Origin: Xylographa opegraphella
Taxonomy: Eukaryota
Assembly: GCA_022813865.1 (NCBI GenBank)
Contig: JALDZX010000060.1
Span: 62,037 to 122,731 of the forward strand
DNA length: 60,695 nucleotides
Direction: 5' to 3'
The translations under genes were made by a program, and so were the position numbers. The notes beneath the pieces are model-generated. The model ran no database searches. It saw nothing but the letters and a program-made list of their open reading frames with translations, and had not been told where the DNA came from. The first letter of the stretch is position 1. Every line of letters begins with the position of its first letter. This document shows, piece by piece, positions 6,297 to 46,068 of this stretch.

Positions 6297-8017
6297 CTAC
6301 AGTGCCAGGGCCGAGAGCACACCGGCTCCGATCAGGCCGCCTTCCGAGGCCTCTCGGAGCACAACCCGTGGCGTGGGGCGTTGCGTGAGGTCAAGGAGGA
6401 TGGTGTCGAGCGATGCTTGGATTTGTGCTCGGTAACCGGGATACAAGCAGATCAAGCCTCCGCAGTAAGCCACCACGAGTTCGTCGACGGAGTCTGGCAG
6501 CTCCGAGGAGCTTCTGGTGGTAGTGTCGGCTCTATGAGCCTCCTCCACCCCCATATCTCCGCTGGTGAAGAGCAAGGCGAGGATAGCCGCGGCAATCATG
6601 GCCGCTGATCGACGCAGCACCAGGCTTTCAATTCTCAGGAATACAGCGCAGAGGTGCGCTGTCCAAGTCCAGTGCTCACTTTCTTCGAACCCTGGAGTGT
6701 CTCTCAAACGCTCGGCTAGAGTCTCTGGGTCATTTGTGGTGCCCACAGTCTGCGCCAGAAACGAAGTTGGAACTGCGTGGCGCTGAAGGAGGCCAGACGG
6801 AAGTCGAGTCCTCTCGATGTGCATGAAGTTGATATATGTATCCACGAGAACCAATCGGACAACCTCCCCCAGGTAAGCTCCTGCTGTCATGTACTCGAAT
6901 GGCTGGAATCCTGGATTGTGGCTTTCCTCATCCAAAGCTTTGTCCCAGCGTGTAATCACACCGATCTCGCGTAGAGTGGCAGTTGATCCCCGGAGAGTCC
7001 ATTCGGTGTTGACCACCAACGTAGAATGGTCCGACACGGTCAAGTGCGAAGGTCTTTTCGAAGAACCAAGGGCGTCAAGCTTGAGGCACACTGCTGCGTT
7101 ACAGCCCGTCCCAAGGATGAGGCCTATCGCAGTTTTGCTTTGCAAGGTCGTTCTTGTTGAGTACGATAGAGACAGGAATGTGGCCACAGCATCGTTGGAG
7201 ATGGCTGTGATCCTAAGCTCGGGCAGACCCTGGAGAAAATGCTTCCCACCGTCTAAACGGGGTTTCCGATAACGTTCATAGCCTCCAAGGACCATTTCCC
7301 CAAGATCATGATATGAGGTGATCGCGAATCCTTTGCCCATTGGCATAAGAGTGGCTTCAGTTATGGATGATTGCCTGACAATGAGAATATTAGAGATCAG
7401 GGACAACATGAATTCTGAACACAAAAACACCAAGAATGACGCCTTGGATCATTGTAGGAAAAGAATAAGTGCGGCTTTGGAATAGAAAGTGATACATGAA
7501 CATACATCATTGGAAAACTGAAGGTGATACCTAATGGAATATCATTGGGTATTTGTTCCGAAGTTGCATGACAGAATCGAGCTTCCACAACTTCAGCGAG
7601 GCAGTCTCCGACCCAGGCAAACAAGTCCTCCGCTTTCTCAACTTTCAGATGCTCCTCAATTGGCCAAGATTTACCGTGACATTTCCGGACATTTTCCGTG
7701 AACAAATGGCCTTTTTGATCATCTGCAAGCTGATGAGTAGGACCTTCAAGATGGCTTGTTTGACCATCTGGACCACTCCCCAGAAGAGTGACAAAAGCTA
7801 TGCGAAGATTTGTCCCGCCCAGATCAATGGTCAAGTATTCTCCTGTCTCGTGACCAGTTGGAAGCCTTGTGATGGGAGTTGCCAGAAACTGGTCAGTCGA
7901 ATGCAGCGCTAGGTCGCTATATGTGGCAGATAGTTGACGGACGAGAGAACACAACCTAGCGGAGCTTATCTGCAACGGGTCAAGCCAATCATCGATGATT
8001 GCAGTCTGGTGCGACAT
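6297..8017 (-). CDS. Atypical hexokinase-like protein (HxkC/HxkD-type, possibly regulatory); 2 exons, intron 7505-7375
   Basis: Motifs DLGGTNLR, LGITFSFPM, SNDAVATFLS, ILGTGCNA, VNTEW, PFEYMTAGAYLGE. The canonical WTKGF is replaced by MGKGF. Confidence 0.88.
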
Positions 8018-8493
8018 AATGAACAATGATGAACACTTCAAGAGAGAATGAATGGTAGCGAACTGCTTCCTACACGTGTATCGTATCGGACTCAGGACGT
8101 TGTCCAGATGGGACTTCGTTGTTCACGAAGTTCTTCAATAAGCATCCTTAATGAGGTTTGAGCTGCATCGCCTGATGAAATGTTTCTTACAAGACGAGAA
8201 CTTGGCCAACGTTGAAGGGAATTGCTCGAATTGTTGTTTACAAACTTAATCCTCGGAACTATGTATCTCCGAGAATGTGGCGGATATGTAGCAGGGGTTT
8301 GGCAAAAGGTGGAGTGACTCTGCGGGATGTCGTGATTGGATTATATAAGCTCAAAGACCCTAATCGATATTGAAGTAATGACCATCTTGAGAAATTTATT
8401 TGCCATCCTTTCGCATACATAATTGAATCCGAGGGTAACACTTCAGTGATCCCTCAGGTTCTTTCCCACATCGCATTTTTTGTTCATATTACA

Positions 8494-11400
8494 ATGACGA
8501 CTGTTTCAAGCGTTGGTGAAGCTGGTACGTAAGAAGCACAAGGATCCCCCGCCTGCGGCTTTGTGGCGAACCTATCAGCCATTGATAGTGAGCTGATTCG
8601 TGATATGCAGTCGCACGCATTGCATACATTTCCAGCGATGTCGTTGTGTCTGTCCAGCCTACACTGGCAAAGGACTCGGAGTTTTCGAGGCACCTGAACG
8701 ATCTAGTGACGAGAAAGTCTCCTTCTGTAATTGCAAAAGGAATTCCAAATGTACGCAGGCACCGATCAAACAGCTTGAGAATACTGATCGGAGATTAGGT
8801 ACAATCAATAAGACACAATAACGACCCTTTTCTGTCTGCCTTTGAACCTCTACGTTCCGGAAAACTCGTCTCCGTTACGACACCCTCGTCTACACTTCTC
8901 ACCTCTGTTCCACATCTTTATAAACTTGCTCAGTATCCAATTGTGATTCATGTTTCTCTACATCCCCTTGGCTTGCCCGACTACTCGGAGATCACTGCCA
9001 TAAGGCAATCTGGATTCTCCTTTTTACAGTCTGAGACTCTACAGGAGGCGCAAGATATAGCACTGACTGCCCATGCGCTTGCTATTACATCTGGGAAGGG
9101 AGTCATCCACTTTTTCGACGTGAGCAACTCGATCGAGGATACATCAATATCCGTGGAGAGCGAGAACTTTGTTCGAGCATTGCTGGAGACAGATGCTGTC
9201 AGAGCTTATCAATCGTCGAGAATCGGAGCTAGTTCGCTATATGTGGACGACGGGCGCCAAGCTACCGTCACCAAAAGTGACCTCCCAACGGTTGGGGAAC
9301 ACTCTAACCAGATTGATGCCACGCCTATTGCAGAGCAGGCTCAATCCAAGGAAGCCAGTCGTGATGCGTCGTCCGTCGGCTCATCAGCTCGAGAGAGCAG
9401 TGCTGATAGTCGGCCCACTATCTCCTCAATGTCTTCTATCGATTCAGTGACGACTAGAACGATTACTTCGGAAGATATTTACGAATACCTATCTGCTATC
9501 TGGTCAAAATTTCAATCCGCGACAGGCCGCAGCTATGAAGCATTCGAATACACTGGGCCGTCTGATGCTGAGTCTGCTATATTCATATTCGGATCAACAG
9601 GAGTGTTCATTGATGCAATTCGTGACGCAAGTTCCGAGGATGAGTTTGCCAATGTTGGAATTATCACCGCTAGGGTATATCGCCCCTGGTTTGGCACGAG
9701 ATTGGCAGATTCGCTCCCCGGATCCGTCACCCGGATAGCTGTACTAGAGCAGATCAAGAGAAAAACTACAAAGTGGGGCCCTGTATTGCTCGACATCCTC
9801 ATGAGCTTGAAGACCGGTGCTTCTTCGACACAAGCTCCACTAATCGTGGGACACCAGCTTGGGCATATTGAGCCTGCTACTGCCCGCCAAGCTCTCCGGG
9901 GTATCTACCAGAATTTGAACTCATCGTCGCCGATACAGAATCTGGAAGTAGGAGTTTCAAAACCGCCGGCGGAGAGCTTGGCAAATTATGCGTTGGAACA
10001 ACCTAAAGTTGAAAGCGCATACTTGAAGATTTTGGATCAAGTTTTCGGCGACCGACTTTACATGGCGAATCGTTTGGAAGCGTCGGACGCTGGAATCTCC
10101 GCGTCGATTGCAGCTAATCCAGAATTTGGTTTTGGCTCCCTTTTAGCACGAACGGAACATCGACGGCGCTTTATAAGCGAGGTCAAAGATGCTGCGATGA
10201 CGATAAACTTTGCAACAGATATTCCACAGACTTGGCTTTCGAAATGGGCACTGAGTGCAGAAGACCCGAAGAAGTCCAACTCATTGGCTCGAGATGTCAT
10301 TGCCCGACTCAGAATTGATGGTTCGCCGTTGGCATATCAACTTCTAGCGTCAAAGCCTCTATTCTTCAAAGAGTCTCAGTGGCTAATCGGATCCGATGCG
10401 TGGGCATATGACCTCGGAAATTCTGGTGTCCATCATGTTTTAGCTTCCGGTGCGAATGTCAACATGCTGATCATTGATTCTCAACCATACTCGGAGAGAG
10501 CTGCCGCAGATGCCACACGACGGAAGAAAGATATTGGTCTCTACGCTATGAACTTTGGCAATGCCTATGTTGCTTCCGTGGCTGTATATAGCTCGTACAC
10601 TCAGGTTCTTGAGGCAATGATCGAAGCGGATCAGTTCGATGGTCCTTCGGTCATTGTTGCATATCTACCATACAACAAAGAGGATGACTCTCCTCTGACA
10701 GTGTTGCAAGAAACCAAGAAGGCTGTCGACCTTGGATACTGGCCTTTATATCGATGGAACCCACACAACGAAGACAATGGCTCTGCGAATTTCTCGCTTG
10801 ACTCGGAACGTATCAAGAAAGAGCTTGAAGAGTTTCTTAAGCGGGACAATCACCTATCTCAACTCATGAGGCGACATCCTGAGTTTTCCGCAAACTTGTC
10901 CGAATCGTACGGCAGTGAGGTTCGCGAGATGCAAAAGAGGAGTGCTAAAGACGCGTACGACCAGATGCTCGAAGGACTCTATGGTGCACCAATGACCATC
11001 CTGTTTGCTTCTGACAACGGAAATGCAGAAAGTTTAGCCAAACGGTTAGGTAACAGAGGAAAAGCTAGAGGTTTGAAGACGCTGGTTATGGCAATGGATG
11101 AATATCCTCTCGAGGATCTTGCCGGTGAGGAGAACGTTGTTATGATCACAAGTACAGCAGGACAAGGCGAATTTCCCCAAAATGGTCGCGCCTTTTGGGA
11201 TGCAGTCAAGGGTACTGTCGACCTCGACCTATCCAAAATCAAATTTTCCGTCTTTGCTCTTGGAGATAGTCACTATTGGCCGAGGAAAGAGGACAAGATA
11301 TACTACAACAAGCCTGGAAAGGATCTCGATATCCGAATAGCGTTCCTAGGCGCCCATCGACTAACTGAAGTCGGTATGGGAGATGATCAAGATCCGGATG

Positions 11401-31679: not shown

Positions 31680-33426
31680 CTACTTCTTTTCCTTCACCCA
31701 GGCAGGCACGAAGCTCTCCTCGGCCTTCTGTGCGTCGGCTACGGGAGCAGGCGGCAATTTTCTCGTCGTCTGGTTCGCAAACAAGCCGTTCTCGTCCCAG
31801 TGATGGACCGCTCCTGCGATCAGAATGAACGGCCGATCCGTGCTGTCGGTGCGGTTCCACGGCTTGGTCTCAGGCGCGTGGACCGTCGCAGGCCGCCACG
31901 GATCCTCCTGGCCGTCGATGAAAGCCAGACGGTCGGAGGAGATGTTGTAGGCGCCAATGTAATTCACGGCGTCCGTGTCCGGAGGAGTGGTGATGTTGAA
32001 GGCGTCGCGGCAGATCAGGCTCTCGTACTCGAGGGTTTGCGTGCGTGAGATGATCGGGAGCTGGTCTTTGGGAACACCGGAGCCTGTTTGCAGGAAGCCC
32101 CATCTAGAGGGTACGTTGGTTATGTTGAAGAAAATGATTAAAAAAAATAGAGGATTATGGGACTTACTGCGAACAGTACTGGTAAGGCCAACTGCGCCAG
32201 CTTTGCGAGAGATCATCTTGCTTGTAGAACTCCGGAATGTGCGTCGAAAAGCAGTCGTCCTGTGTCTGGCCGCTTGCCGCGCACGGGGCGACCTCGGTGA
32301 CATTGAGCCAGCCAATATAATTCATCATGCGTGGAACTAGGGTCTTGGCTTGCTCTGCGTAGCCGGTCGCCGACAGCAGAGCGTGGATTGAAGCATTCAT
32401 GCTCACTGTGGCCGGATATAAAACGGCATCGGAACTGACATTGCCGCAATACTCGGAGAAGGAGGGATCGTTGACAGCTGGATCCCAATTCCGGGATTGC
32501 CAACCTCCAACGCCAGCACCGAGGACACTCGCAAAGTCATTGTTGTAGGTCACGTTGGGCATCAGGAAAGTGTTTTTGAGCTGGCCGGTCAGTGACGTGT
32601 GGTTGAGCAAGATAGTATCGACCACGTGCATAACACTCTGCGTAGTCGTGATACATTCCGCAGGGCCGTATTGCCGGACCGGCTCGTAATACTCCCAGTA
32701 GTCGTAGATGGCCTTGACCACCCCTGAAGAGGAGATGGCGCCCCAGAAGACGTTGGGATATAGAACGCGCAAAAACGCGACAAAAGCTCCGGCGTAGGAT
32801 CCGCCATACGCAACCCACGGTACGGCAGACGCCGTCAGGTTGTGATGCTCGAGACCTGGGAAAACAACGTTCTCGGCGAAGTACGCGGTATCGGCCAGCG
32901 CTTGGGCGGTGGTTAAGAAGCGCAAGTTCTCCGTGGACAGGTCCGGTGTTGGGAAGCTAGTGCCATAGTAACGATGCTCCAATATCACCCCAAGTCCATT
33001 TGTAGCTGCCGCAAGCTTTGCGACAATTCCCTTTTGCAGGTAGGGAAGGCGGTCGACAGCAGTGTCCTCCCCGCTGGCGAGCACAATCACCGGCCCGCCC
33101 GCTCTATAGTGACTGGCGTCGAAAAAGTAGCGCAAATTGAACATGCCATCGCTGCAAAGTCGCTCGTCAGTCCAAAACTCTGTTGCAGAGGTTGAGCTGG
33201 GGGAGTGCTCCTGCTCTTACCTGTGGGGTTCGTAGCGCGAGTCATTGTGGAAATGGTCAATAGGGACGGAGAGGTTGTGGGCCGGGTAGAGGAGGCTTGG
33301 ATCGATGTCCCGTTTGGTCATAGACTGCGCATGGGTCCATTTTAGAGAGCGGATGGGGCGTTTGAGCGCGCTCTCGACGGGACACGACCACAGTAGTATT
33401 TGGAGGAGCAGCGCAACAGCCTTCAT
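31680..33426 (-). CDS. Secreted serine peptidase, family S28 (3 exons)
   Basis: Signal peptide; VPIDHFHND, ILEHRYYGTS, LRFLTTAQALADTAYF, nucleophile GGSYAG, WPYQYCSQ|WGFLQ, DGQEDPW, GAVHHWDE. Confidence 0.93.
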
Positions 33427-34465
33427 CTTGCACTACGTACCTTGAAGTGCACGACATCGCAAATCGCTGCTGCCCCAGCTTTATATACGCTGATGCAGCC
33501 CTGGCCTCCCCATTATCTGCCCCGGAGCGGAGCAATCCTCGGACTGCATCACACCTTCCATGTTTGTGGACTTTGCCCCGCGAAGAGATCCCTACTGCAG
33601 CGGACTATCCTATGACGGATGCTCCGAAACGAATCATGAGAAGGCGCGTCAGGCCAGCTGGGTATTACTCTAACTAGATGAAGAAGTACAGATCTTACAG
33701 CCGCGGATCAGGAGTGGGTCGCAGTGGGCCTGCTGGAATAGTATTCTTACTGGATGCTGGATCGTGTTGTGGTGAAGGCTGCATCGCTGGCCAGCAGTAA
33801 TGCGTCATTGCATTGCAATGGTATTGTCTGCACTGTGGCTTGTTCCAGCCATAGCACTGCGAGCTTTGATTGCTCTTCAGCATTGATTGCACGGTATTCT
33901 TCGACTCAGATTTTGGGGTTTGATGAACCTGTCAAGGCGGTAAACCGTTCGCTAGCAACGTAAATCGGGTCCGACCCGAGTTAAAAGTTGAAAATAATCA
34001 ACAAATATATTGATAACATTTTTAGTTAAGATGTACGGGCACAGGAAGCAGAATGGTGGAGCCTGTGTATCATCTGACGGCCATCAAAGATATGTAAGAA
34101 GGATGTTTTTTTCCTGATCCAGAAAGCTCACTTGTATACTACTACGCTATTACGCATTGAGTATTCTGCCAGGTGCCGCTATTTCTAACAGTTTGTTAAA
34201 AAACGGTAAAATACGTGCAAGCGTATATCACGTGTTCATTATTAATATATTCAATAGCGTCAAACCTCGATTCTTCGTCGAGATTAACGTATGTAACTGC
34301 TTGTGAATAATTCATTTTTTGTAACTATTGTGTGATTGATCAGGTAATAACAAAGACGGATCGCATTGAAGTCAAAGATCGCTATCGAGGATATTCGAGC
34401 TTGAAACCCATACTTAGTTCAAAAGAAATGCAAGATCAATATCACACGGTAGTGGGGATAGCCTT

Positions 34466-36161
34466 CTACAGAAGATAATGGTGAGTAACAAGTGATGACG
34501 TATGGGCACCAGCACCCAGCTGCCCGGCAAGAGCTTCGGTCTCTTTCTTGATCCGGATTCCCAAGTCGGCGTCAATCTTTGTGAAGATGTCTAGTCAGGG
34601 TAGTCAGTATGAGATCAGGGCTATCGTAAAGGGCGAGACTTACCGTAAGTGGCCTGGCGAATTGGGGCGTCCGCTTTACTCAAGCTCGCCGCTACGTTGC
34701 CTACGAGTCTCTCCTGTTGCCCAGGAGGGTCGGCCTTCTCCAACATCTTCCAGAACACCCGCGGCTGGACATAGTCGTCGTCTGTCACTTTAGAATCGAA
34801 ATAGGTCACCGTGCCTACCCACTGCTCGTGGGCGGCTTGCTCATACTGCTTCACGGTGATAATCTTTTTATGTTGCTGGTCACCGGGGATATAGTTCGGC
34901 AGCGATCCGAGGTTGTCGATGTTGCCAGCGCCGTCTCTTTTCGTTGGATTGTAACCGTATAGGGACCTGTTGACGGCAGACTGGTAGAAGTTGACGCCGA
35001 GCCGATAGCGAGCCGCAGAACCGTATGCAAACAGGCGGGTCTGGAGAATTGGGTCTGCAGTTACATCCCACCCTGGAACGATGGCTGTCGGTGAGAATGA
35101 AACACCTTCCACTTCCGAAAAGAAGTTCGTCGGGTTTTCGTTGAGTGTAATCTTTCCAAACGGGATTAGAGGATAGTCAGCCTGCGAGATAACCTTGGTA
35201 GGATCAAAGATATTGACTTTGTACGTCTGCGCCTCCTGCGGTGGTATAATCTGTACGTAGACGTCCCACACGGGAAAGTCCTTTGCGGCAATAGCATTGA
35301 AGAGACTGCGGCTCATGAAGTCTGGATCCTCTCCAGCGATCCGGGTTGCTTCTTCCCGCGTGAAGTTCGCGACACCTGCCTTTGGCTTCATGTGTACTTT
35401 CACGTACCAGAATGAGCCGTCTGTCTTTGTAAATTTGTATGTGTTCAGGCCGAATATCTCCGAATTTTGATAGGATTTGGGGGTACCACGATCACTGAAA
35501 ATCATCATAAGCGCGTGAAACGCTTCGGAGTTGTGGTCGAAAAAGTCCCAGAAAGCTGAAGAGCTGAATAGGTTGTTCTGCGGAACGCCTTTCTGGCAGT
35601 GAACGAATGAAGGAAATTTACCACCATCGCGAATCGGGAAAACCGGCTCGCTGAAGAAGAGCCAGTCGAGGTTCCCTTTTTCAGTGTAGAGCTTGAAAGC
35701 AAACCCTCGAGTGTCCCGGACAGTATCGGCAGAACCTCTGCCGCCTGCCACTGTTGACAAGCGGGAGAAGAGTTTAGTCTTTTTTCCGACTTTGCTAAGA
35801 AAGTCTGCACTCGTGAATTCTGAGATATCGTGCGTAACCTCGAACTCGCCATATGCTCCCGCTCCCTTTGCATGGACAAGCCTCTCCGGTATTCTCTCAT
35901 GCGTGACATGGGATATTATTTCAAGGAGATTGATATCTCGCAGTAACAATGGGCCTTGAAGCTTATCTCCAACTCTAAGGGTGGCCTGCGGATCGGCAAG
36001 GGGCAATCCTAGGTTCATGTGTCAGCGTCATATCACGGTCCACAACATGAACATACCGCTGTTCGTCGTATAGTATGCCTCTCCCGGTGGGGGCTTCTCG
36101 ATCAGTCAGTGAAAGAATGAGACTGCTCATAGAGTTTCCTTACGGGTGCTTCAAACGACAT
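34466..36161 (-). CDS. Small-subunit heme catalase-like protein with non-canonical distal site (exons 36161-36144, ~36096-36057, 36008-34644, 34590-34466)
   Basis: HERIPERLVHAKGAGAYGEF (distal His), RLSTVAGGRGSADTVRDTRGFAFK, proximal RLFAYGSAARYRLGVN (Tyr). GNLDWLFFSEPVF replaces the canonical GNxDxVxNNTPxF. Confidence 0.92.
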
Positions 36162-36265
36162 ATTGATGTTAAAAGCCTTTAGAACGGTAGCTTGATGTTG
36201 GATGGTTGGCAACAAAAAGGCTTATGTTTATACTGTGAAATTGACAGTAACCATACCAAACACCA

Positions 36266-36277
36266 TTTATATATATG
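36266..36277 (-). promoter_or_regulatory. Putative TATA box of the catalase-like gene
   Basis: TATATATAAA on the minus strand about 110 bp upstream of ATG 36161. Confidence 0.4.
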
Positions 36278-37483
36278 TACAGTGCATGGCATCCAAGGAA
36301 AGGGCAAGAAAAAGGCAACACTTGGCGTAAGCAGATAAGATCATAAGCACACCATCAATGCCTGAAATCAGTGCTGAATCCAAACAAAATGGATGCTCAG
36401 GCAGAGTATGATTTGATGCCCGATTAACAGCACCGCCCGATAGTTACCACCACTGCGCATTGTGGAAGATAAATCCAGTAGCAGTACACCAAGATGTTTA
36501 GCTGAAGCAAGACGACCACAGCTACTGCGGTCAGACATCTGCGCGTGACCAAGACTATCACCCTCGGATACGGGGCTGATCAGGAGTTCGAGACGCAAAT
36601 TGCTCAGCTCTGTCTTCGAAGATGCACAAAACGACTGTGGACCATGTCCCTTCGGCAATTTTCAGCTGGCCTCAGCAAGCCACGCGAGGGTCTATTGGCT
36701 GGACCGACTGTTTCCGTGCATGACAAGAACGCCACGGGATATAGGAACATTAAAGCAGCCGCACGCTTGATTGGATTCTTATTTCAAATTACGACCTTCC
36801 CTTGGAGACTAACATGTTGAACTCTTTAGCGAGGCGCAGCAGCGACCTTGCTCGCTCTGTACAGACGTCAATTGTGCAGCTGAGGAAGCAATCAGACAGT
36901 TTGCAGATGGGAAACCGCTCGAGCCTTTGGTCCACGGAACCTTATTGGATCACAGCCACATAATGCTGGGTATACGAAAGGCTCCACAACAATTCTTCTC
37001 ATTAGGCAATACTATCAATCAGAAGCAGATCGGCTCATGATACGGAACCAAAGGAAGCAATCGGTCATATGATCCGTCAACTATTCTTCTCCTCAACACT
37101 GCATGATCACTGCATGATTTACTGCTTCCTTCTGCGAGCTGGAAGTCTCATGCCTGCCATATAATTGTTCAGCTCATTTAGTCTAGATGGCTTTGTTTCG
37201 ACTCAGGCTAGACCAAGCCACTATCTTTGGTACCGTGTTCATTGCAAAGCTCCAAGCTTTTGCCTGCTGTCGAGGCTTCTTGCTAACTCCCTGCTCAACT
37301 CGGCCGTTCGAAGCATGCTTTTGGGTGATAGCGATAGATAGTGACAAGTAAGAGATTGAGGTAGGCAATTTATGGCACTCGGTACTTGTATAGAGTTCTG
37401 AGCTCTTCCTTCTCCTTGCCTGACCTACACCCAATCTGAGCTCTCTCATTCTATCAACTCACTTATCGAGCTGACTTCTATCC

Positions 37484-39631
37484 ATGATGGCTGACCCAAA
37501 CAATACACAGCAATATCCTGTGTGGGATGACGATGGAACTACTGATGTCCAGTCTCTCTTCAAAAACCCATCATTCGTTCCTGCTGAGCATCGAAGCGGT
37601 GCTGCCACTTACTGGTACAGTAATATGGCCAGCTTCGGGCTTTTCCTCTACGATACACCCACCCAGAGCAACAATGTCTTTCAAAGTGGGCCTGCCATAT
37701 ACAGTAAACTAGCTCCGGGGGGAAACATGCCCGAGGCGGGGCCAGACTACAGCGGTCGGTTCCCAGCCGATGCCATAGAAAAGTTTCGTGTGTGGTATAA
37801 CCAAGGAGGTCGTGTGAAAAAGACAGATCCCATACCCAGCCCGAACGTGCCAGCTCAACCGATTGAGCCTCAACCTGCACGGAAGTTCATAGTCACTGCA
37901 CACCCGGTGTGGGATGCCCAAGGTGCTGAGGATGATATCAAGATGTGTTTCACAGACCCTTGCTGGATCTCCAATGGCTCCAGCAACGCGGCCGACTGGC
38001 GAACGAATATGCTCAATTTTCAGTACGATGCAACGACAGATCCCCCAACCATGTTCGATTTACAGAACTACGGGCATGTCAAAGGATGGGCTCGCAGTGT
38101 CTACGACCATGTTGCATCTAAAGCAATGCCTATTGAGGCACCATTCTTTTCGGACGAGGCTGTAGAGGCATTCAGACTTTGGTATAACCAGGGCTGTCCT
38201 CAGACCCGAAGCCAAGTTGGTGTTGCAAGCGTGCCTAAAGCTCCGATCCCGCCTGAGCCAGTGGAGAAGCCGTTCAAGATGCGGAAGGACATCAACGCGT
38301 TGACCGATTCAGAGCTGACAACCTACCGATTGCAACTCTTGGCCCTCCACAGTAACGCTGTTGAGGACTCCACGTGGCAGACTGGTGGTTTCCTGCATGC
38401 GAATTGGTGCCTTCATTATATGCAGGCTTCGTTTCCGTGGCATAGAGCGCATTTGCTCTGGCTGGAGACCCAGATTGGGGGCCCCATTCCGTATTGGAAC
38501 TTTTACTCATCAAACGCGGCGGACCCAGACTCACCAGATTCTGGAATCCCGCAAGCATTTCTGGATGACAAATTCAAAGATTTTGAAGGAAATTGGCGGG
38601 ATAACCCATTACGCCATGCTCTGGCGCGCAACGGCATGTCCCGTGCATCGACCGCGTCAAACCCGCTTCACCGAGTCAAACGCGCACAGCCATTCGAACA
38701 TCCCGACGGCCCGATCAAACGAGCGGATTACATCACGCAGCATGTACCTACCTATCTTGACCAGATCTACCATGCCACTGTCATGCAGAGTATCGGCGAT
38801 ACAGAGGGAGCAGGGTACCCATTCACCTTTGCGCAGCCCGACCTGACGCCCGACAACCTCGCCAAATACTACCAAGATCACCTCATGGAGTATGATGGCG
38901 CTCTCGAACAAGCCCATGATAACCTGCACGGCTGGGCTGGTCCCGATATGGCAAATAACAGCTATGCCGCTTTCGACCCGCTCTTCTGGTCGTTCCATGC
39001 GAATTTTGACCGCCTCTTCGAGACGTGGATACGCACTCACGAGCAGCAGGATTGGACGTCCAACTTCCCACTCCGCCCGTTCAAGGGTCGAGAGGGACGG
39101 ATCGATGTTATCGAAGGCGATCCATTTGTCTACAAGTATACCAATATCGGCGACATGGTCATGAATTGCAAGGCCCTAGGATATACGTACGCTCCCCCCA
39201 AAAGCCCGGACTACGCACCACCTCCGTCAAAGATCAGCCACGCTCTTGCACCGATCGTGTTCTTCCCAAATGTCAAGTGTACGGATAAAACATATGTCGT
39301 TCACGTCGCGCTCGACAATGGCGACGGCAAGAAGCTTGTCGTCGGGCAGCCAGGTTATGTTGGCAGCATCACGCGCCTCGGGATGGGCCCGGACAACGGT
39401 AATGATCGATGTATTCAGAATGGTGTTCTCCGAAGACTGGAAGCCGCCAAGGCAGTGCAAGACATCGGTGGCATGAAGCCGCACAGCGAAGTTAAATTGA
39501 AGCTGTTCGTCGTGGAGGATGGAGCAGGTCAGCCTGCCAGGGAGGTATCGGAAGTTGAGTACAGAGACTGGCCGGGCTTCAAGCCGCTGGTCATCTGGGA
39601 CAAGCCTGTCGCTGGCGTGGTAGCTCATTGA
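37484..39631 (+). CDS. Intronless cytosolic tyrosinase (type-3 copper) with two tandem N-terminal ~100-aa domains
   Basis: CuA: FLHANWCLHYMQASFPWHRAHL. CuB: EQAHDNLHGWAG...AAFDPLFWSFHANFDRLF. Also IPYWNF, LRPF and LGYTY. No signal peptide. Confidence 0.92.
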   Translation: MMADPNNTQQYPVWDDDGTTDVQSLFKNPSFVPAEHRSGAATYWYSNMASFGLFLYDTPTQSNNVFQSGPAIYSKLAPGGNMPEAGPDYSGRFPADAIEKFRVWYNQGGRVKKTDPIPSPNVPAQPIEPQPARKFIVTAHPVWDAQGAEDDIKMCFTDPCWISNGSSNAADWRTNMLNFQYDATTDPPTMFDLQNYGHVKGWARSVYDHVASKAMPIEAPFFSDEAVEAFRLWYNQGCPQTRSQVGVASVPKAPIPPEPVEKPFKMRKDINALTDSELTTYRLQLLALHSNAVEDSTWQTGGFLHANWCLHYMQASFPWHRAHLLWLETQIGGPIPYWNFYSSNAADPDSPDSGIPQAFLDDKFKDFEGNWRDNPLRHALARNGMSRASTASNPLHRVKRAQPFEHPDGPIKRADYITQHVPTYLDQIYHATVMQSIGDTEGAGYPFTFAQPDLTPDNLAKYYQDHLMEYDGALEQAHDNLHGWAGPDMANNSYAAFDPLFWSFHANFDRLFETWIRTHEQQDWTSNFPLRPFKGREGRIDVIEGDPFVYKYTNIGDMVMNCKALGYTYAPPKSPDYAPPPSKISHALAPIVFFPNVKCTDKTYVVHVALDNGDGKKLVVGQPGYVGSITRLGMGPDNGNDRCIQNGVLRRLEAAKAVQDIGGMKPHSEVKLKLFVVEDGAGQPAREVSEVEYRDWPGFKPLVIWDKPVAGVVAH

Positions 39632-39804
39632 GTGCACAGTTATTTCGTGTGTTCCGACGTATTCGTATTACTACGAACTCTCTTTCCTTGCTGCCTGTCG
39701 CTGTTAGTGTCGCCGTCTCTATTATCGCTGCTACTTTCATGAGTAAATGATAGGCGTTCGCAGTAGTACGGCAGCGATAGCTATAACAACAGCGACAGCG
39801 ATGT

Positions 39805-39881
39805 ATAGCCACAGCGATAAATAGCCACAGCGATAAATAGCCACAGCGATAAATAGCCACAGCGATAAATAGCCACAGCGA
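39805..39881. repeat. 16-bp tandem repeat ATAGCCACAGCGATAA, ~4.8 copies
   Basis: Perfect copies from 39805, with degenerate units upstream (39770-39804). Confidence 0.95.
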
Positions 39882-41433
39882 AACTGTTGTGGCGCTTGGC
39901 GCTTACACATGTACATATGCCCACCACAGTAGAAGTTAGCTTCAGGATCAAACATCAGACCTCACGAATACAATATGTTTAATCCCGACACACAAGGTGT
40001 CATATATTGAGCACTGTACCGTACCAGTCAGGCAGTTTGCTTCTATCAGAGTTCGGTGCGGGCTGAAGCATTGTAAATACGTGACACCTGTGACGGGCAA
40101 CATTGATATTTCTGACAGCGCAGAGGGATTTCAGAGCGAGACTTTTGGCAGCAAATGCATAAATGTAGATTCGAAGTCCGATTCGCGTATTTCTTTAATG
40201 GTGACTTTGGGACCAGAGCGCATCTAGAGCAATATCTTTCGATCGATTTATTTTACACATTCAGAGAATCTCAAGCAGTTTCAATAGCGAATACGCTAGT
40301 TTATCTACTGCGGCTTATACAATGTCAATTGCCTGTAATGATACATGGTTTGATCGGATGATTGATACTCTAGCTATCGATAAACATATTAGTAAATACA
40401 CTGGCCTCCTTAGTAGCAGGTGTAAGAATATCTTACAAATCTATATACATGAAACGCAAAAAGGGGAACGGGGAGGTTGCTAAAACCGAAGGGAGTTACT
40501 GTAAAGGAATTCGTAGGAAGTCCGCAGCAGCCTAGTTGAGTAGGCAAAGGGGTAGGCAAAAGGATTGGATCGGGGTCGCAGCTAGGTCAAGTCTTTTCTG
40601 AATAAGGTNACTATCCGTCCGACAGAGAGTGAAAAGAAGAAAAAACGAATTAACTGCCGTTGTGGCTCTGCTGCTCTATCGCTATATGTAGATGCGTGAG
40701 GAAGGAAGCTCGAAATCCAAAGAGCGCCCAAAAGACCCGCCCCGAATCCACCACATTACCAGAATCGAAAAGGAATGCCAGTTTCTAAGACGTGGCAGTG
40801 TTTAGGGCAGCACCCTTTGCTAAACGTACCCGTTAGAAAAGGATGATTCATCCACTCCTTAGCGTATTGTATTGCTTTGTGAAGAACCCCTTCCTTACCT
40901 TCACGGTAGTGGCCGAGTTGGTAAATCATATCACTTGAATGCCGACGGAGACCGCCGATACTCTATTATTTTTCAGATGAGTTCGCCTCCACGATCAGCG
41001 GCATCGGTTCTCATGTCGATCGGATCTGGAGTTGCACCAGGCTCCTCCAGAAGCAGCTAGATAGTAATATGATTATTGCTGTGAGAGGAACCATTCGGCC
41101 ATGCGGCGGTAGTAGAGATCGTCACTCGAATGGGTTTGAGCTTCGAAGTATTGCTTTCGAAATATACGAGGTGCTCGTCTCCTTCAAGACCAACAGTATG
41201 GTTGATAGAAGTAGCTGCGGTACATGCGCCTGGCGCAAACAATATGGGTACGATCCCAAGGACTCCAAAAATCGGGAAAACATTCAGGAAATATAACTCC
41301 GTGTGTAGAAATCTGGGGTAGTGCTAGAAAAGCAAGCGAAGATTTGATTGGTACAAGATACACATCCATCGGTCAAAAAATTCGCTTCGCTTCGATAGCC
41401 AAAGAACCAAACAATCATCGGGTCAAGAACTGG

Positions 41434-42406
41434 CTACGTGGAACTTTCAAGCTCACGGCAATGTTCTGGTCCCCGCAAATCCTGCCGCCGCTGCGCCACG
41501 AACGGTCCATGCTCAGCTACATTGCCGTCGGCGTCCACTTCGTGTTTGACCTCGTCAACTCCCAATTCCAGTCTCTCACGAGGCTCAAGCTCCTGGTAAT
41601 TAGGCTGATTGACATCCCGTCGGGACCGTCGATGTCTGCTAACCCAAAGATAGAGTCCCATCGTCAGCAATGCAATAGTACCGACCGGCACGGCTACACC
41701 GATAGCCGCTCGATCACCTGTACTTAAGCCTGTCGCAGGCACCACGGGAGGCTGCGATGATCCATTGCTCTGAGGCGCGTTCGAAGGAGAAATTGCAGAA
41801 GTTATGGTAGCAATTGCGGTCACCGTTACCGATACAGTCTTAGCCACTTGCTGTGTGTTTGTTGGTATGGGTGTTGGGGCAGGAACGATGGTAGCCAGGC
41901 CTCCAGCACTGCACGTTGGGTTGCCAAGAGAAGAGATAAACATGGACACTGCTGTACTCTGAAATAATGTGTTGGCTCCACTCGGAATTGATATGGACAC
42001 TGGCGGCTCAACGGCATTCGGTGTTCCCGTTGTAACGAAACACTGTCCACCTTGCAAAACTGTAGACACCACCGAATATGCTGTAAAAACAAGATAGGTA
42101 TTCGTGGTTGTAAATGCGCTGTGCCATAATCAATAGGCGATATTTTGCGTGCTGTGGATCAACGTACCTGCTCGTTATTCCGAGAGGAACTTGGTACTGC
42201 TCATTCACAAGGCTTTCGATACCCGCCATCACGTAGCATCCAGCACAGCTCTATGTGGGAATGAGACTGACTTCACAAGTTTAGTCTCGGCTGCTGTAGC
42301 TTCCCACTCAACCCACGGTCTGACCTTGGGGTACTCCAGCGCAACGCCATCTCGACGAAAAAGTCGCGAGAAGGACCAGGCATATTCCTATCCTGTAGAG
42401 CGGCAT
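41434..42406 (-). CDS. Type I cell-surface membrane protein (Mid2/Wsc-like layout); exon boundaries approximate
   Basis: Signal-like MPLYRIGICLVLLATFSS; Ser/Thr-rich stalk; TM GLSTGDRAAIGVAVPVGTIALLTMGLYLWV followed by basic SRHRRSRR; cytosolic ELE/EL motifs. Confidence 0.7.
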
Positions 42407-44557
42407 GAAGACAGCTTGAAGCAAAGAATCTAGAGGGCGACGCTATCCATAAAAGTATGCCAAAACATAGAGAACCAGAGGTCGGAGAAGAGCAGGCACG
42501 AAAAGAACTCGACCCCGCAAAGGGAGAAAGCCGGAGCCCCGTCGTTGGACAAGAGGCTGTGCACTGCACATGCACGGCTGAGGGGAAGCAAAGATACATG
42601 CAGATCGCAGAATAAGGCTGCTGTTGGTGGTGGGAATTTCTCCCCACCATCATGGGTTCTGGATTGTTCTCCCTTCACGACGTAGACAAAAAGAAATTGC
42701 GTAGAGAAAGACATATCGAAATCACGAGTAGGGATTGCCTTGAGAAATGCATTGTAAACCTTCATGTGTTCAAGGTCCAAGTCAGCCGACCCTATCAAGA
42801 TATTTCGATAAAAAAAGAAATTATCGCGGAATCGACACGAACCCTAAATTGAATTTTTAGGCGCAAAATGGCCGCTAAACTTACCCCGGTACGGTTTAAA
42901 TGTTTATAAATTACATATTACCTTATTATATAACAACCAGCGGCCATGGTGTATGATTAAATTTAAAGCTTTTAACCATGACAGCGAGATAGAATCCCAT
43001 GTAAAAATTACAGTCCGTCGTTAGCGTTACCGTCCACGTATGAAAATACTCAACCTTGAATTCTAGCTTGGAACATCCAGCCTTATGAAGCCTGCTGACC
43101 AAGGTATTGGCTACACCAAACTATAGCCACCGCAACGAGCAGACTTAGACGAACGCCCCCAGCAAGTGAAACGATGGCCCGTATGGGGCCCATGGGGCAG
43201 AAATTCCACTGGGCGTGGACGCCCTGCTCGTTCGAGGGATCGCGAAAAGCGCTGTAATTGCACATGGTTAGTGTGCGGTGGGGGTGGCAACAAAGCCGGT
43301 TGACGATTTGGTCGTGGACGGAGGGCTGGAGTGTGATGTGAGCGGTAAGTCTGTGGTAATTTGGGGACAGAAATTGGTGAGGAAGAATTACGAAGAGAGG
43401 GTTAAGATCGGGAGGAATAGGAGGCCCACAGAGGACGTTTTGGGAATTTCGGTGTGGATAAAACGCTTGTGTGAACGAGTGTATGGCAATAGCAGGGTAT
43501 TGTAGAAATCAGAGGAAATAGTAACTTCGCATAAATATGCTTCACTCGAGTGACATTATTCATGAAGACAAGATATTTTCAAACATGCTCGATTTGGGTA
43601 TACTGTCATTGAACATTATAACCTACCTTGACCCACTACCAACCAATCCAAGATCAACCTTCTGTTGACCGCCGTGTTTCGGATGAATGACTGAATCTCA
43701 TTAGCGCATACCCAGGGATTGGAGTACTTAGCTTTATCTGGGAGTTCGTTTCTTTCATCTGTTTCCACGCATGAGCATCAATTTCAGTGAGTTTGGATAG
43801 GTGCTAGGTAAGAAGTCCGACCCTGGCCGTGCAAGAAGGTCATGGGACTATGTTCCGGGAGGGATATGTCGAGTCAGACATTTCTTCCCGTCAGGGGCCA
43901 CAGCTTTCATGATCAGCAAACAAGGAATTCGGCGGTGTGGATTCGGATGTGTGCGCAAGTCCTGGATGCAAGAATTTCGTAGGCTACTTGTGTTAGGATG
44001 TCGAAACGGCGTTGACAAAGAGAGACATCGTAAATGGATCCAGAAAAAGTGCGCACTATGGCAATACAGAGACTGACCATGAAACAGGGACAACGCATCG
44101 ACGCTACCATGCGTCAAACTTGTCTTAAAGAAAATGATGTAGTCGGATTTTAACAATGTGGCAGTACTCAATTTCTTTCCCATAAATCAGCACAAGCCTC
44201 TGGGAACAGATCACTCACCTTTTCTCCCTTTCATAATCTTATATTCGAGCAATGTCGACGCAGAAAGTTCCAGCACCGTCGAAGCCAACTTCCTTAACAT
44301 AAATTAGCACAAACCCTGGGGAACAGATCACTCATCTTTTCTTCCCTATATAATATGTCAATCTCAAATTATCCACTTTTCTAAATATCAAAGAATCGAG
44401 TCGACCATCTACCTAAAACAATGAATTCTCCTTGCGATCCAAAAATCGAAGTCGACCATGTGTCGAAAATGAAACAAATGGCAACTTTGGCCGCATCAGC
44501 ACCAACCCACAAATGAGAGCACTTACCTCTCTCCCTCCCACCCGCTGCAGCCATCAT

Positions 44558-45172
44558 TCAACCCTCTATCTCGCACTCTCGCGCTTCCCACTCGGTATCC
44601 CACCAAGGCGCGTCGCCGGCCGCGCGATCGAGCTCGTTCTGCAGCTGCTGTGCAGCCGCGGCGTCGTCGTCCAGCTCCGCAGTAAAGTCTGCGTCAGGGG
44701 CAGCGGTCATGACGATGTCATCATCCCGGGCGGCAGTCATGGCAATGTCATCGTCCATGACAGTGTCATCATCAAAGACAATGTACTCATCAAAGTCGAG
44801 GTCATCATCCGGGACAGCGGCGGTCGGGACAACGTCGCCAAAGGCATTGACGAAGGCAACGTCGTCATAAGCATTGGCGGCGACAGTGTCATCGACCGAG
44901 TTTGTGATGGCAGCGTGCAGGCCGAGCTGAAATGTGGCTTGCTCGTCGTCGGCGCAGGTTTTGCAGAGCTGGTCTGCGGAAAGGGGAATAATTCTGCCGA
45001 CGAGGTTGTAGGCGGGCGGGTCGTCGAGGCATGTGTCGAGGCAGGGGTTGCGGATGACTGCAGAGATGTGGTTGCAGGCCGGGTGGTAGTAGACGGCGAC
45101 GTGGCACATCCCGGTGGACTGGTCTTCCGGTATGATGTCGGTATTGTGAATTTGATCTGGGTTTATTGACAT
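44558..45172 (-). CDS. Hypothetical protein with N-terminal Cys/His (putative zinc-binding) motif and very acidic repetitive C-terminus
   Basis: MCHVAVYYHPACNH...C...C...CKTC followed by Asp-rich repeats (DDDIAMTAARDDDIVMTAAPD); coding-like GC3. Confidence 0.6.
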   Translation of the reverse strand: MSINPDQIHNTDIIPEDQSTGMCHVAVYYHPACNHISAVIRNPCLDTCLDDPPAYNLVGRIIPLSADQLCKTCADDEQATFQLGLHAAITNSVDDTVAANAYDDVAFVNAFGDVVPTAAVPDDDLDFDEYIVFDDDTVMDDDIAMTAARDDDIVMTAAPDADFTAELDDDAAAAQQLQNELDRAAGDAPWWDTEWEARECEIEG

Positions 45173-46068
45173 TTTTGATGAAATGCTGTAATGCAATTCT
45201 AAGATGTTGCAGTGTAGATTTGAGAAACTAAAGTTTGATTCTGAGAGTGGAGTTGATGAGAAACAGTGAGAGACACAGTCATAGATATATACCGCAATCG
45301 AAGACATCAAGACAACAATATAGGCCAAAACCCCCATAACAAAAAGCCTCTATGCAGACAACAGCATTGTTTCCCGTACCCCAGCCGCAAAAGCAGAATG
45401 CACACAAAAAGGGTATTGTTCCTGCAAGCTCGCTTTGAGAAGTAGAATCCATTGTATAATTAACAAAGCTCATCTTCTTCAGAGACAGACAAACCAGCAG
45501 CGCGGGTAGTTCTCGAATGGGCACAAAGTTAGCCAGACGATCAAACACTTTGGAAGCTTCCGAACAGCGGGTTGATGCTCTGCATGCATCTCGAAAGCAA
45601 GAACGGAACGGGAACCGTGGACAATACACCAAAAACACATGGGTAAGTAGGATCTGAACAAAGTCAATCGAGGACAATGACATGGATTTTCATCGTTTAT
45701 CGATAAACAATGGACAAAAGATCGAGTCCGGGCAGAAATAAGCCTGGAACCTCGGCGTCGGCGTCAGTTCATCCGAAACATTCGAGGCGAACCTATCTGA
45801 GCCATGAAGAGTTGAGTACGGCCAGTGCGAGAAGCTACCACCATGACAGAAAGACAATCCCATCCTGCCCAGCACACCATTTCCCACATATCCCATCCAT
45901 AAACCCATCCATCTCCCCAAGTTGATCATCCAACATAGTTCTACCCCCACTCACCTGGTATCATCACCACCGCTCAATCACACCCCTATACCCAAGACCT
46001 CCCCTCAACGCCATGGACCCAAAACAAAAGCCCCAATATATCCAACCCCCGCAGCCCAGCCCGCGTAC

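Follow-up and report, generated by a model that had tools for sequence, protein, structure and literature searches.

Catalases have long been believed to have one function only, and the enzymes behind the abundant phenolic chemistry of lichen fungi are poorly known. According to the account given in PMC12003167, the catalase fold can be put to a use other than H2O2 disproportionation, since chanoclavine synthase EasC (PDB 9jdb) and its homologue CnsD are catalase-fold enzymes capable of O2-dependent radical reactions; EasC is described in PMC4249865 as acting with EasE. Catalase-phenol oxidases (CATPO from Scytalidium thermophilum and an enzyme from Cladosporium) are described as oxidizing diphenols without H2O2 (PMC10836395); for a catalase that neighbours a phenoloxidase, phenol chemistry thus has a precedent. 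The distal Asn and the channel Phe are both rated as essential and invariantly conserved in fungal catalases in the review PMC7712995.

The window analyzed here, a stretch of 60,695 nucleotides from Xylographa opegraphella (contig JALDZX010000060.1, positions 62,037 to 122,731), contains a catalase-fold gene and a tyrosinase-family gene arranged head-to-head (Table 1). The original prediction of a divergent pair across approximately 1.3 kb was right in both coordinates and orientation. As it had also claimed, no signal peptide is apparent in either protein, judging from the hydropathy of the first 50 residues (top 12-residue values of 0.17 for the tyrosinase and 1.46 for the catalase). The catalase exon model reproduces the 514-aa NCBI model (P0035), and the X. 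opegraphella protein MCJ1287164.1 is 100% identical to the window catalase. Two oxidoreductase genes side by side are not in themselves beyond chance.

Table 1. Features of the catalase-tyrosinase locus (window coordinates)
Feature	Position	Strand	Description
Catalase-fold haem protein gene	34466-36161	minus	4 exons, 514 aa; Pfam Catalase
Catalase exons	36161-36144, 36093-36057, 36008-34644, 34590-34466	minus	Read from sequence
Catalase start and stop codons	ATG 36161; stop 34468-34466	minus	
Phe-Ser-Glu-Pro-Val-Phe-Pro codons	35650-35670	minus	Residues 137-143 of the 514-aa protein, in place of Asn-Asn-Thr-Pro-x-Phe-Phe
Divergent intergenic region common to both genes	36162-37483	unstranded	1,322 bp between ATGs, 46.6% GC
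Tyrosinase-family type-3 copper protein gene	37484-39631	plus	ATG 37484; single intronless ORF, 715 aa
N-terminal helical domain, copy 1	37511-37828	plus	Residues ~10-115; only in lichen-type members
N-terminal helical domain, copy 2	37901-38203	plus	Residues ~140-240; also in single-domain Tuber and Collybia tyrosinases
Di-copper catalytic domain	38270-39043	plus	Residues ~263-520
C-terminal beta-sandwich domain	39206-39628	plus	Residues ~575-715; type that lies over the active site of latent phenoloxidases and of hemocyanin units

The core of the catalase matches PF00199 (E 4.1e-150, profile positions 5-380 of 383), and its best solved relatives are fungal peroxisomal small-subunit (clade 3) catalases, namely 2xq1 (peroxisomal catalase, E 6e-126) and 1a4e (catalase A, E 1e-123). 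It shares with them the core fold family and, in motifs that align with the canonical ones, the distal His (RIPERLVHAKGAG), Ser (RLSTV) and, on the proximal side, Arg and Tyr (RLFAYGSAARYRLG). Unlike them, it carries FSEPVFP in place of the canonical NNTPxFF (alignment to 2xq1, 1a4e and 6rjn), so that both Asn of NNT are replaced, by Phe and Ser, and the second Phe of the channel pair by Pro, and it has RDG in place of RDP. The predicted loss of the distal Asn is thus confirmed (NNT to FSE; residue 137 of P0035 corresponds to residue 119 of the main-exon translation). In the channel, Val before His is retained (LVH). The protein ends in HHYLL and has no PTS1-like C-terminus, whereas canonical relatives end in tripeptides of the ARL, SRL or PRL type.

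The loss of Asn is a character of a clade and not a private oddity of the window catalase. In a tree of 118 homologues (the 120 best ones listed, minus two shorter than 400 aa), 63 lack the Asn; a branch with support 100 separates these, which are spread across Pezizomycotina, from the rest. An alignment-based count over the 118 rows gives 55 Asn, 33 Phe and 30 Leu at this site, all 63 Asn-less homologues thus having Phe or Leu. The position of the second channel Phe is occupied by Pro in 48 of the 63 Asn-less rows and by Phe in all 55 rows with Asn. Other clade-specific residues are common to most of the 63 rows, the clade-wide changes being N138S, F143P, G206 to Leu, Ile or Val, H207 to Asn, W292 to Ile or Leu, and Y314F (P0035 numbering). 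Some of the changed positions we take to be the proximal relay His and the NADPH-pocket Trp and His of human catalase (human numbering).

The original prediction held that the enzyme does not simply remove H2O2, and these data support it: the window catalase has lost the distal Asn and one Phe of the channel pair, both losses are conserved across the clade, and the protein is therefore probably no simple H2O2 scavenger, as far as can be judged from its residues. This bears on a protective pairing, where a working catalase would clear peroxide and other reactive oxygen species arising from the quinone chemistry of the tyrosinase. Intact haem ligands and distal His and the strong match of the core to Pfam Catalase are in its favour, but the residues that are gone are those rated essential and invariant in PMC7712995, the loss of Asn is fixed in the whole clade, and canonical Asn-bearing peroxisomal catalases of other lichen fungi (e.g. 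Icmadophila and Peltula) are found among the matches, consistent with a separate scavenging paralogue. We regard such pairing as very unlikely. Loss of a residue considered essential could also point to a pseudogene or a gene in decay, in which case the pairing would mean nothing. Against this, the four exons are clean and give an open reading frame, all 63 Asn-less homologues have Phe or Leu at the Asn site and most of them share the other clade-specific residues, an intact relative exists at about 80% identity, and conservation already suggests purifying selection, which makes decay highly improbable.

The window catalase was also considered as a member of the EasC clade, and this placement was rejected by the ranking of PDB matches, in which the yeast peroxisomal catalases are the closest and 9jdb lies outside the 60 best (all with E 1e-93 or better). 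With only the C-terminal 86 residues compared, EasC comes second among the PDB matches (E 3e-4), while for the segment around the Asn site it ranks only 20th. Moreover, neither a prenyltransferase (DMATS) nor an EasE-type FAD oxidase, expected in the context of an indole-alkaloid cluster, is present among the 29 ORFs scanned. The Cladosporium catalase-phenol oxidase (9hxt, E 1e-95) is a more distant match to the window catalase.

In the second gene, the central domain matches PF00264 (E 6.2e-22) and all six copper-binding His are present. In the 15-sequence alignment H305, H311, H320, H482, H505 and Cys309, which precedes the second CuA His by two residues, do not vary, and H478 is conserved in 90% of rows or more. 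Structural comparison with Foldseek returned latent polyphenol oxidases (PPOs), a pro-tyrosinase and hemocyanin units over approximately 490-610 alignment columns. In Aspergillus oryzae MelB (3w6w), aurone synthase (4z11) and squid hemocyanin (4yd9), as in the window protein, the di-copper domain precedes a C-terminal beta-sandwich (E 5e-12 to 7e-10, probability 1.00). The latent proteins and hemocyanin units share with the window tyrosinase the six His and the Cys equivalent to Cys309, but sequence identity to them is only 13-18%, the spacing from the first CuA His to Cys-x-His is short in the window protein, and it is extended at the N-terminus by two helical domains of about 100 aa. The AlphaFold2 model (pLDDT 76) places strands of the beta-domain at residues 589-706, and relatives match DUF7868 (P0024). 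On the model and the Foldseek matches, the tyrosinase is of the latent form with a C-terminal covering domain. The duplication of the extra domain, claimed previously, is borne out by BLASTP of residues 1-143 against 144-259 (E 3e-10, 28% identity).

A search for recurrence of the two genes as adjacent pairs in unrelated fungi yielded co-location in three related assemblies only, all with at least 74% protein identity. These are represented by the window's own 122,731-bp contig, a 204,937-bp contig of Ptychographa xylographoides (MMC19_005570 and MMC19_005571), and a 10,899-bp contig with catalase P0037 and tyrosinase pieces P0239 and P0164 (about 80% identity). A 17,133-bp contig of run X2, grouped with Ptychographa, is colinear with window positions 34317-39637; the intergenic region aligns with it, except for about 200 bp (36562-36762), where other sequence is found. 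Both genes are intact and adjacent down to approximately 74-81% protein identity, which is compatible with selection for linkage and is a point against considering the genes as separate.

In other lichen-type assemblies, contigs ranging from 89 kb to 5.7 Mb carry either gene alone. None of the contigs with tyrosinase relatives (5,694,132; 565,081; 450,568; 340,729; 336,575; 265,953; 147,593 and 113,629 bp) is the contig of any listed catalase, and none of those with catalases of the window subclade (698,771; 648,591; 287,113; 118,417; 89,722 and 34,089 bp) is the contig of any listed tyrosinase; these calls are indirect, being made by comparing contigs between protein listings, and depend on both proteins having been called and listed. 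Among annotated genomes, Heterodermia speciosa has such a tyrosinase and no such catalase in the collection, and Pseudevernia consocians has such a catalase and no such tyrosinase. No tyrosinase was found by tblastn and the family profile within up to 10 kb at any of 68 metagenomic catalase loci, a set of retrieved contigs to which that of the closest catalase (118,417 bp) does not belong; 14 of the 68 have Phe at the Asn site, with at least 3 kb upstream in nine of the 14. Both genes are accessory and, at such similarity, largely limited to lichen-derived sequences.

The genes around the pair are housekeeping ones: the neighbours in the window are a hexokinase, a sulfite reductase, a dehydrogenase, a phosphatase, a metacaspase, an S28 peptidase, Nuf2 and Clp1. 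As had been stated, PKS and NRPS domains are absent from the 29 largest ORFs of the window; the same set contains no backbone enzyme, tailoring set, transporter or pathway regulator near the pair, and the sole transcription factor ORF in the scan is 31 kb away. On the left, the nearest ORF with a family assignment, the S28 peptidase, is at about 1.0 kb, and on the right only ORFs without Pfam matches precede Nuf2 at 6.4 kb. The description of the flanks as AT-rich and gene-poor was overstated: their GC content is 45.1%, compared to 46.6% in the intergenic region and 52.1% in the whole window, as in ordinary non-coding DNA of the window.

Hence, with linkage in three assemblies only, unlinked genes elsewhere and housekeeping neighbours, the conserved co-regulated mini-cluster proposed originally is not supported. 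The pairing is kept only in close relatives and therefore resembles local gene order rather than a conserved unit of two enzymes. We consider it somewhat probable that the locus comprises two separate accessory oxidoreductases, an Asn-less catalase-fold enzyme with poor catalatic turnover and an intracellular latent-type tyrosinase, adjacent by lineage-specific synteny; they would be head-to-head because gene order was inherited in a single lichen lineage that comprises Xylographa, Ptychographa and a further relative. The first protein is probably cytosolic and a member of an old, Pezizomycotina-wide clade of paralogues, in which the distal Asn was lost and a channel Phe, a proximal-side His and two NADPH-pocket residues changed. 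It would still bind haem through Tyr and His and, with catalatic turnover presumably poor, may be a peroxidase- or oxidase-type enzyme acting on or with an organic substrate. The tyrosinase, with its complete di-copper site, C-terminal lid and two copies of the N-terminal helical domain, would hydroxylate or oxidize phenols upon displacement of the lid. The intergenic region may well drive both genes in the Xylographa lineage; no observation points to a dependence of either enzyme on the other.

Alternatively, the genes could form a true module that arose recently in the Xylographa lineage, with a bidirectional promoter co-expressing both and the two enzymes working one after the other on a single substrate, a phenol or an aromatic amino acid: the latent tyrosinase would make a catechol or quinone, and the catalase-fold enzyme would follow with radical or peroxidative chemistry. 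The common intergenic region and the intact adjacent genes in three assemblies agree with this, as does the precedent of catalase-fold enzymes beside a partner oxidase, reported for EasC and CnsD (PMC12003167) and for EasC with EasE (PMC4249865). At such divergence, though, adjacency is predicted by ordinary synteny, and the many long contigs of other lichens with unlinked genes, the named genomes holding one gene without the other, the 68 metagenomic loci and the lack of a backbone enzyme, transporter or regulator at the locus all speak against a module, which we deem unlikely. A unit of this catalase and tyrosinase, if real, would lend itself to expression and assay as a simple system of two genes. 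The comparisons made here render it unlikely, and therefore effort is better directed at the catalase clade itself: large, conserved and Asn-less, with channel, proximal-side and NADPH-pocket positions also changed, it suggests itself as a source of further non-catalatic catalases.

One catalase of the sister subclade, likewise Asn-less, is located head-to-head with a flavin amine oxidase (locus L036). The adjacency to a different O2-using oxidase hints at a recurrent theme of a catalase plus an oxidase; it is in line with the module and is a point against the reading as separate genes. In the broadest form of this theme, Asn-less catalases would be neofunctionalised haem enzymes throughout Pezizomycotina, each paired with a neighbouring O2-using oxidase, as EasC with EasE, that feeds radical or peroxidative chemistry with peroxide or a reactive substrate. 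The partners would be the latent tyrosinase in Xylographa and Ptychographa, the flavin amine oxidase at L036 and perhaps polyketide tailoring at L066, the window pair being one instance of a recurring design of a catalase fold plus a variable oxidase. We find this generalization rather doubtful.

The N-terminal helical domains of the tyrosinase match no Pfam family, and the tyrosinase sequence contains no CxxCH haem site. Compared with class I cytochromes c as a candidate cytochrome c-like fold, their repeat has its best VIA matches in FoxE (Z 4.2, rmsd 4.3, 95 aligned) and PccH (Z 3.8), all below Z 5, and among the named Atlas clusters PSCyt1 comes closest, with no more than 0.83-0.84. The conserved MP motif of the repeat may resemble the axial-Met region of cytochromes c.

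The main exon of the catalase matches the Pfam family Catalase (E 4e-150), and the nearest solved structures are the yeast peroxisomal ones, 2xq1 (E 6e-126) and 1a4e (E 1e-123). The alignments to PDB relatives show conservation of the distal His (RIPERLVHAKGAG), of the Ser in RLSTV, and of the proximal Arg and Tyr within RLFAYGSAARYRLG. The canonical motif NNTPxFFxRDP becomes FSEPVFPIRDG here (alignments and motif table), so the distal Asn, already described as missing in the original prediction, is indeed absent, FSE standing for NNT. The catalytic Asn is presumably the first of NNT (Asn148 in the human enzyme), which would equal Phe137 in this protein; since both Asn residues of NNT are lost, the identity of the catalytic one is immaterial. 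In fungal catalases the distal His, Ser and Asn, together with the channel Val and two neighbouring Phe residues, are described as essential and invariantly conserved in a review (PMC7712995). At the level of sequence, the proposal of a role other than simple H2O2 removal is supported. The hydropathy check reveals no hydrophobic N-terminus, and the C-terminus is HHYLL, where canonical relatives from the same search have tripeptides of the ARL/SRL/PRL type; hence the protein is probably cytosolic.

The loss of Asn is a character of a whole clade. The tree was built from 118 of the best 120 homologues listed, all of at least 400 aa (P0053 and P0060, being shorter, were dropped), and one FastTree branch with support 100 has 63 of the 118 rows on one side (60 scored as Asn-less, three unscored by the pattern) and 55 rows with Asn on the opposite side, one of them unscored by the pattern. 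The alignment-based count of the Asn column over the same 118 rows is 55 N, 33 F and 30 L. The Asn-less side holds proteins from Xylariales, Botrytis/Sclerotinia, Diaporthe, Cryphonectria, Paecilomyces, Rasamsonia, Penicillium and Fonsecaea, as well as from Trichophaea, Orbilia/Arthrobotrys and Trichoglossum, and by this broad taxon spread of the named proteins the paralogue is old within Pezizomycotina. The catalase of the window belongs to a subclade of 14 rows (support 100), mostly lichen-derived and carrying the FSE motif.

Several other positions split almost perfectly between the two sides of the tree (numbering of P0035, the 514-aa model of the catalase). In particular, N138 of Asn-bearing catalases is replaced on the Asn-less side by S, F143 by P, G206 by L, I or V, H207 by N, W292 by I or L, and Y314 by F. 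In human catalase H207 presumably equals the relay His (proximal His-Asp-Arg), and W292 a Trp in the NADPH pocket. As a whole, this pattern is that of a neofunctionalised enzyme, and decay of the gene was rejected: the reading frame remains open, haem ligands are retained and a relative at ~80% identity is intact.

EasC and CnsD, catalase-fold enzymes of biosynthesis, perform O2-driven radical reactions, and the substrate of EasC sits in the NADPH pocket, as described in the passages of PMC12003167 that deal with them. By its PDB matches the catalase of the window falls outside the EasC clade: EasC (9jdb) is absent from the best 60 matches of the whole catalase exon and comes 20th when only the stretch surrounding the Asn site is searched. 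For the last 86 residues, however, it is the second-best match (E 3e-4). No published account of an Asn-less fungal catalase clade was found in the literature covered, including passages of PMC3523812 and PMC7712995; since subscription journals lay outside its scope, the clade is not shown to be undescribed. This clade itself is a more interesting object than the gene pair.

The catalase gene and the gene of the 715-aa tyrosinase are divergent, with a spacing of 1,322 bp between their ATG sides. The predicted coordinates and orientation of both genes are correct, and the main exon of the catalase is 100% identical to MCJ1287164.1 (MMC26_006512) from Xylographa opegraphella, the lichen-forming ascomycete from which the window originates. 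The flanks, initially described as AT-rich and gene-poor, turned out to be ordinary non-coding DNA (45% GC vs 46.6% in the shared intergenic region). Pfam scans of the window ORFs found no PKS, NRPS or transporter genes near the pair, in line with the predicted absence of PKS/NRPS, and the families found elsewhere in the window (hexokinase, sulfite reductase, 3-hydroxyisobutyrate-dehydrogenase-like, Ser/Thr phosphatase, metacaspase, S28 peptidase, Nuf2 and Clp1) are all housekeeping, the sole exception being a fungal transcription-factor ORF 31 kb off the pair.

Coordinates of genes and other features in the window and in two metagenomic loci with Asn-less catalases
Feature	Source	Coordinates	Strand	Remark
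Catalase gene, four exons	window	36161-36144, 36093-36057, 36008-34644, 34590-34466	minus	joins rebuild the 514-aa P0035 (script-confirmed)
Tyrosinase gene, single ORF	window	37484-39631	plus	715 codons
S28 serine carboxypeptidase gene	window	31680-33426		left of the catalase
Interval from tyrosinase to Nuf2	window	39632-46068		6.4 kb, Pfam-less ORFs only
Tandem repeat	window	39791-39881		just 3' of the tyrosinase stop
High-depth segment	window	40496-40762		~260 bp
Candidate ORF, Ser/Thr-rich	window	41434-42129	minus	Pfam-less, single hydrophobic membrane-span-like stretch
Candidate ORF, Asp-rich	window	44558-45349	minus	Pfam-less, 263 aa
First head-to-head gene	L036	6220-8725	minus	lichen-type metagenome contig
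Second head-to-head gene	L036	9980-11723	plus	lichen-type metagenome contig
Asn-less catalase neighbourhood, first segment	L066	672-2663
Asn-less catalase neighbourhood, second segment	L066	4606-5430
Asn-less catalase neighbourhood, third segment	L066	10001-11740

Co-location of the two genes in other genomes was scored indirectly, by catalase and tyrosinase entries that share a contig of exactly equal size in bp, and both genes are found together in three assemblies only. The first is the contig of the window (122,731 bp), and the second is Ptychographa xylographoides, where the genes are tagged consecutively (MMC19_005570, MMC19_005571) within a contig of 204,937 bp. The third is a 10,899-bp contig of a relative, with exactly this size given for all three protein clusters: the catalase P0037 (80% identity over 444 residues) and two tyrosinase pieces, P0239 (residues 2-462, 74%) and P0164 (residues 468-715, 80%), whose split apparently reflects a short intron that the ORF caller read through. 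Moreover, a 17,133-bp contig from X2, a sequencing run of a relative that may or may not be Ptychographa, is colinear with positions 34317-39637 at ~90% DNA identity, with ~200 intergenic bases replaced.

Beyond the three assemblies the same indirect size matching gave no shared contig for any relative. Tyrosinase relatives with 48-72% identity lie without a partner match on contigs of 5,694,132, 565,081, 450,568, 340,729, 265,953, 147,593 and 113,629 bp, and FSE-subclade catalases with 69-79% identity on contigs of 698,771, 648,591, 118,417, 89,722 and 34,089 bp; a short-protein search, made for the tyrosinase only, recorded no tyrosinase fragments on the catalase contigs. Within the collection, annotated Heterodermia speciosa has the tyrosinase (336,575-bp contig, no partner match) and no FSE-subclade catalase was found in it, and Pseudevernia consocians has the catalase (287,113-bp contig, no partner match) and no such tyrosinase was found. 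The tyrosinase is also absent from all 68 metagenomic loci retrieved with the catalase (tblastn, and the family profile against all six-frame ORFs). Phe occupies the Asn site in 14 of these loci, nine of which include 3 kb or more of DNA upstream and represent three distinct genes. As the metagenome scan missed the closest JGI catalase contig (118,417 bp) and the 68 loci hold more distant catalases, this absence bears on the wider clade, not on the closest orthologues.

Within this indirect matching the homologues do not recur as adjacent divergent pairs in unrelated fungi, and the comparative evidence (three assemblies, none of the 68 loci, housekeeping neighbours) does not support the co-regulated two-enzyme mini-cluster that had been proposed. 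The most likely account, favoured here with some reserve, is that the two genes encode independent accessory oxidoreductases whose adjacency reflects lineage-specific synteny. The three assemblies could also be read as a lineage-specific functional pair of catalase and tyrosinase, set against the separate occurrence of the relatives on long contigs, and we regard this as rather unlikely. Nothing relevant on a lichen tyrosinase-catalase cluster was found in the literature search.

L036, L037, L044 and L056 represent one gene in four samples, a sister-subclade catalase with the motif FFST..PTFPIRDGG, located head-to-head with a flavin amine oxidase (PF01593) at a distance of ~1.1-1.3 kb; this arrangement parallels that of the window, with a different oxidase. 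Another Asn-less catalase (L066, L067) has both a polyketide synthase KS domain and a serine hydrolase of the FSH1 type within ~9 kb, and may lie inside or border a polyketide cluster. A divergent O2-using oxidase neighbour is present in two of the four distinct Asn-less loci with usable flanks (the window and the L036 type), and is absent from the L038-type and L066-type loci; the sample being small and the category set post hoc, the broader association of catalase and oxidase should be taken as a lead and no more. L059-L062, which have 36% identity and align poorly around the Asn site, were left out of the Asn classification, and L048, L049, L052 and L053 were rejected as Asn-less loci, as they retain Asn and have an intron at the site. 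One of the latter four has a GMC oxidoreductase neighbour.

The 715-aa tyrosinase contains the Pfam tyrosinase central domain (E 6e-22). In an alignment of 15 sequences H305, H311, H320, H482 and H505 are invariant, as is Cys309, two residues ahead of H311, and H478 is present in at least 90% of rows. The AlphaFold2 model (mean pLDDT 76) places a beta-domain (589-706) after a helical copper domain, and Foldseek with the copper and C-terminal parts yields latent aurone synthase, latent apple and tomato PPOs, A. oryzae pro-tyrosinase and mollusc hemocyanin functional units (E 5e-12 to 7e-10). The predicted architecture is the 'latent' one, with the active site covered by the C-terminal domain, where DUF7868 is matched in relatives.

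The duplicated extra domain that had been predicted is borne out: residues 1-260 comprise two copies of a ~100-aa helical domain (BLASTP of one half against the other, E 3e-10, 28% identity). The two-copy form occurs in lichen-type sequences, and relatives from Tuber and Collybia have a single copy. The domain matches no Pfam family. Exhaustive phmmer yielded 49 proteins at E <=0.001, 20 of which were covered by the Pfam scan: in seven of the 20 the domain is ahead of or inside a protein carrying the tyrosinase domain, and in nine (P0187, P0188, P0192, P0193, P0195, P0200, P0201, P0203, P0212) it is near the C-terminus of 457-677-aa proteins with no Pfam family. Its presence in the latter makes it a mobile domain, not solely a tyrosinase appendage. 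A haem-less cytochrome c-like fold is hinted at by three weak leads, all below the level of fold assignment: the best VIA matches (FoxE, Z 4.2; PccH, Z 3.8), the nearest named Atlas clusters (PSCyt1, 0.83-0.84), and the conserved ending MP...W..G, which we take to resemble that of cytochrome c-like domains. The tyrosinase sequence has no CxxCH. A separate AF2 model of the repeats alone is poor (pLDDT 59), and since the second copy is below 50, the fold comparison concerns copy 1 only.

Rfam and tRNA scans found no RNA genes in the 33-42 kb region. In run X2 the S28 gene is on a 49,520-bp contig, apart from the 17,133-bp contig of the catalase-tyrosinase block, which beyond the colinear region has no alignment at >=80%; this separation may be assembly fragmentation or a genuine break in gene order. 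The tandem-repeat scan of the 33-42 kb region identified a single array, 5.7 copies of the 16-bp unit AGCCACAGCGATAAAT with 96% matches. The segment at 40496-40762 is either a repeat of high copy number or an organelle-like insert: in contigs of the run that probably gave this assembly, bin means of depth there are ~4,900-9,000, reaching 24,000 at 40722, against ~160 elsewhere, and at either edge many contigs break off into sequence that is unrelated and partly AT-rich. The segment has an N at 40609.
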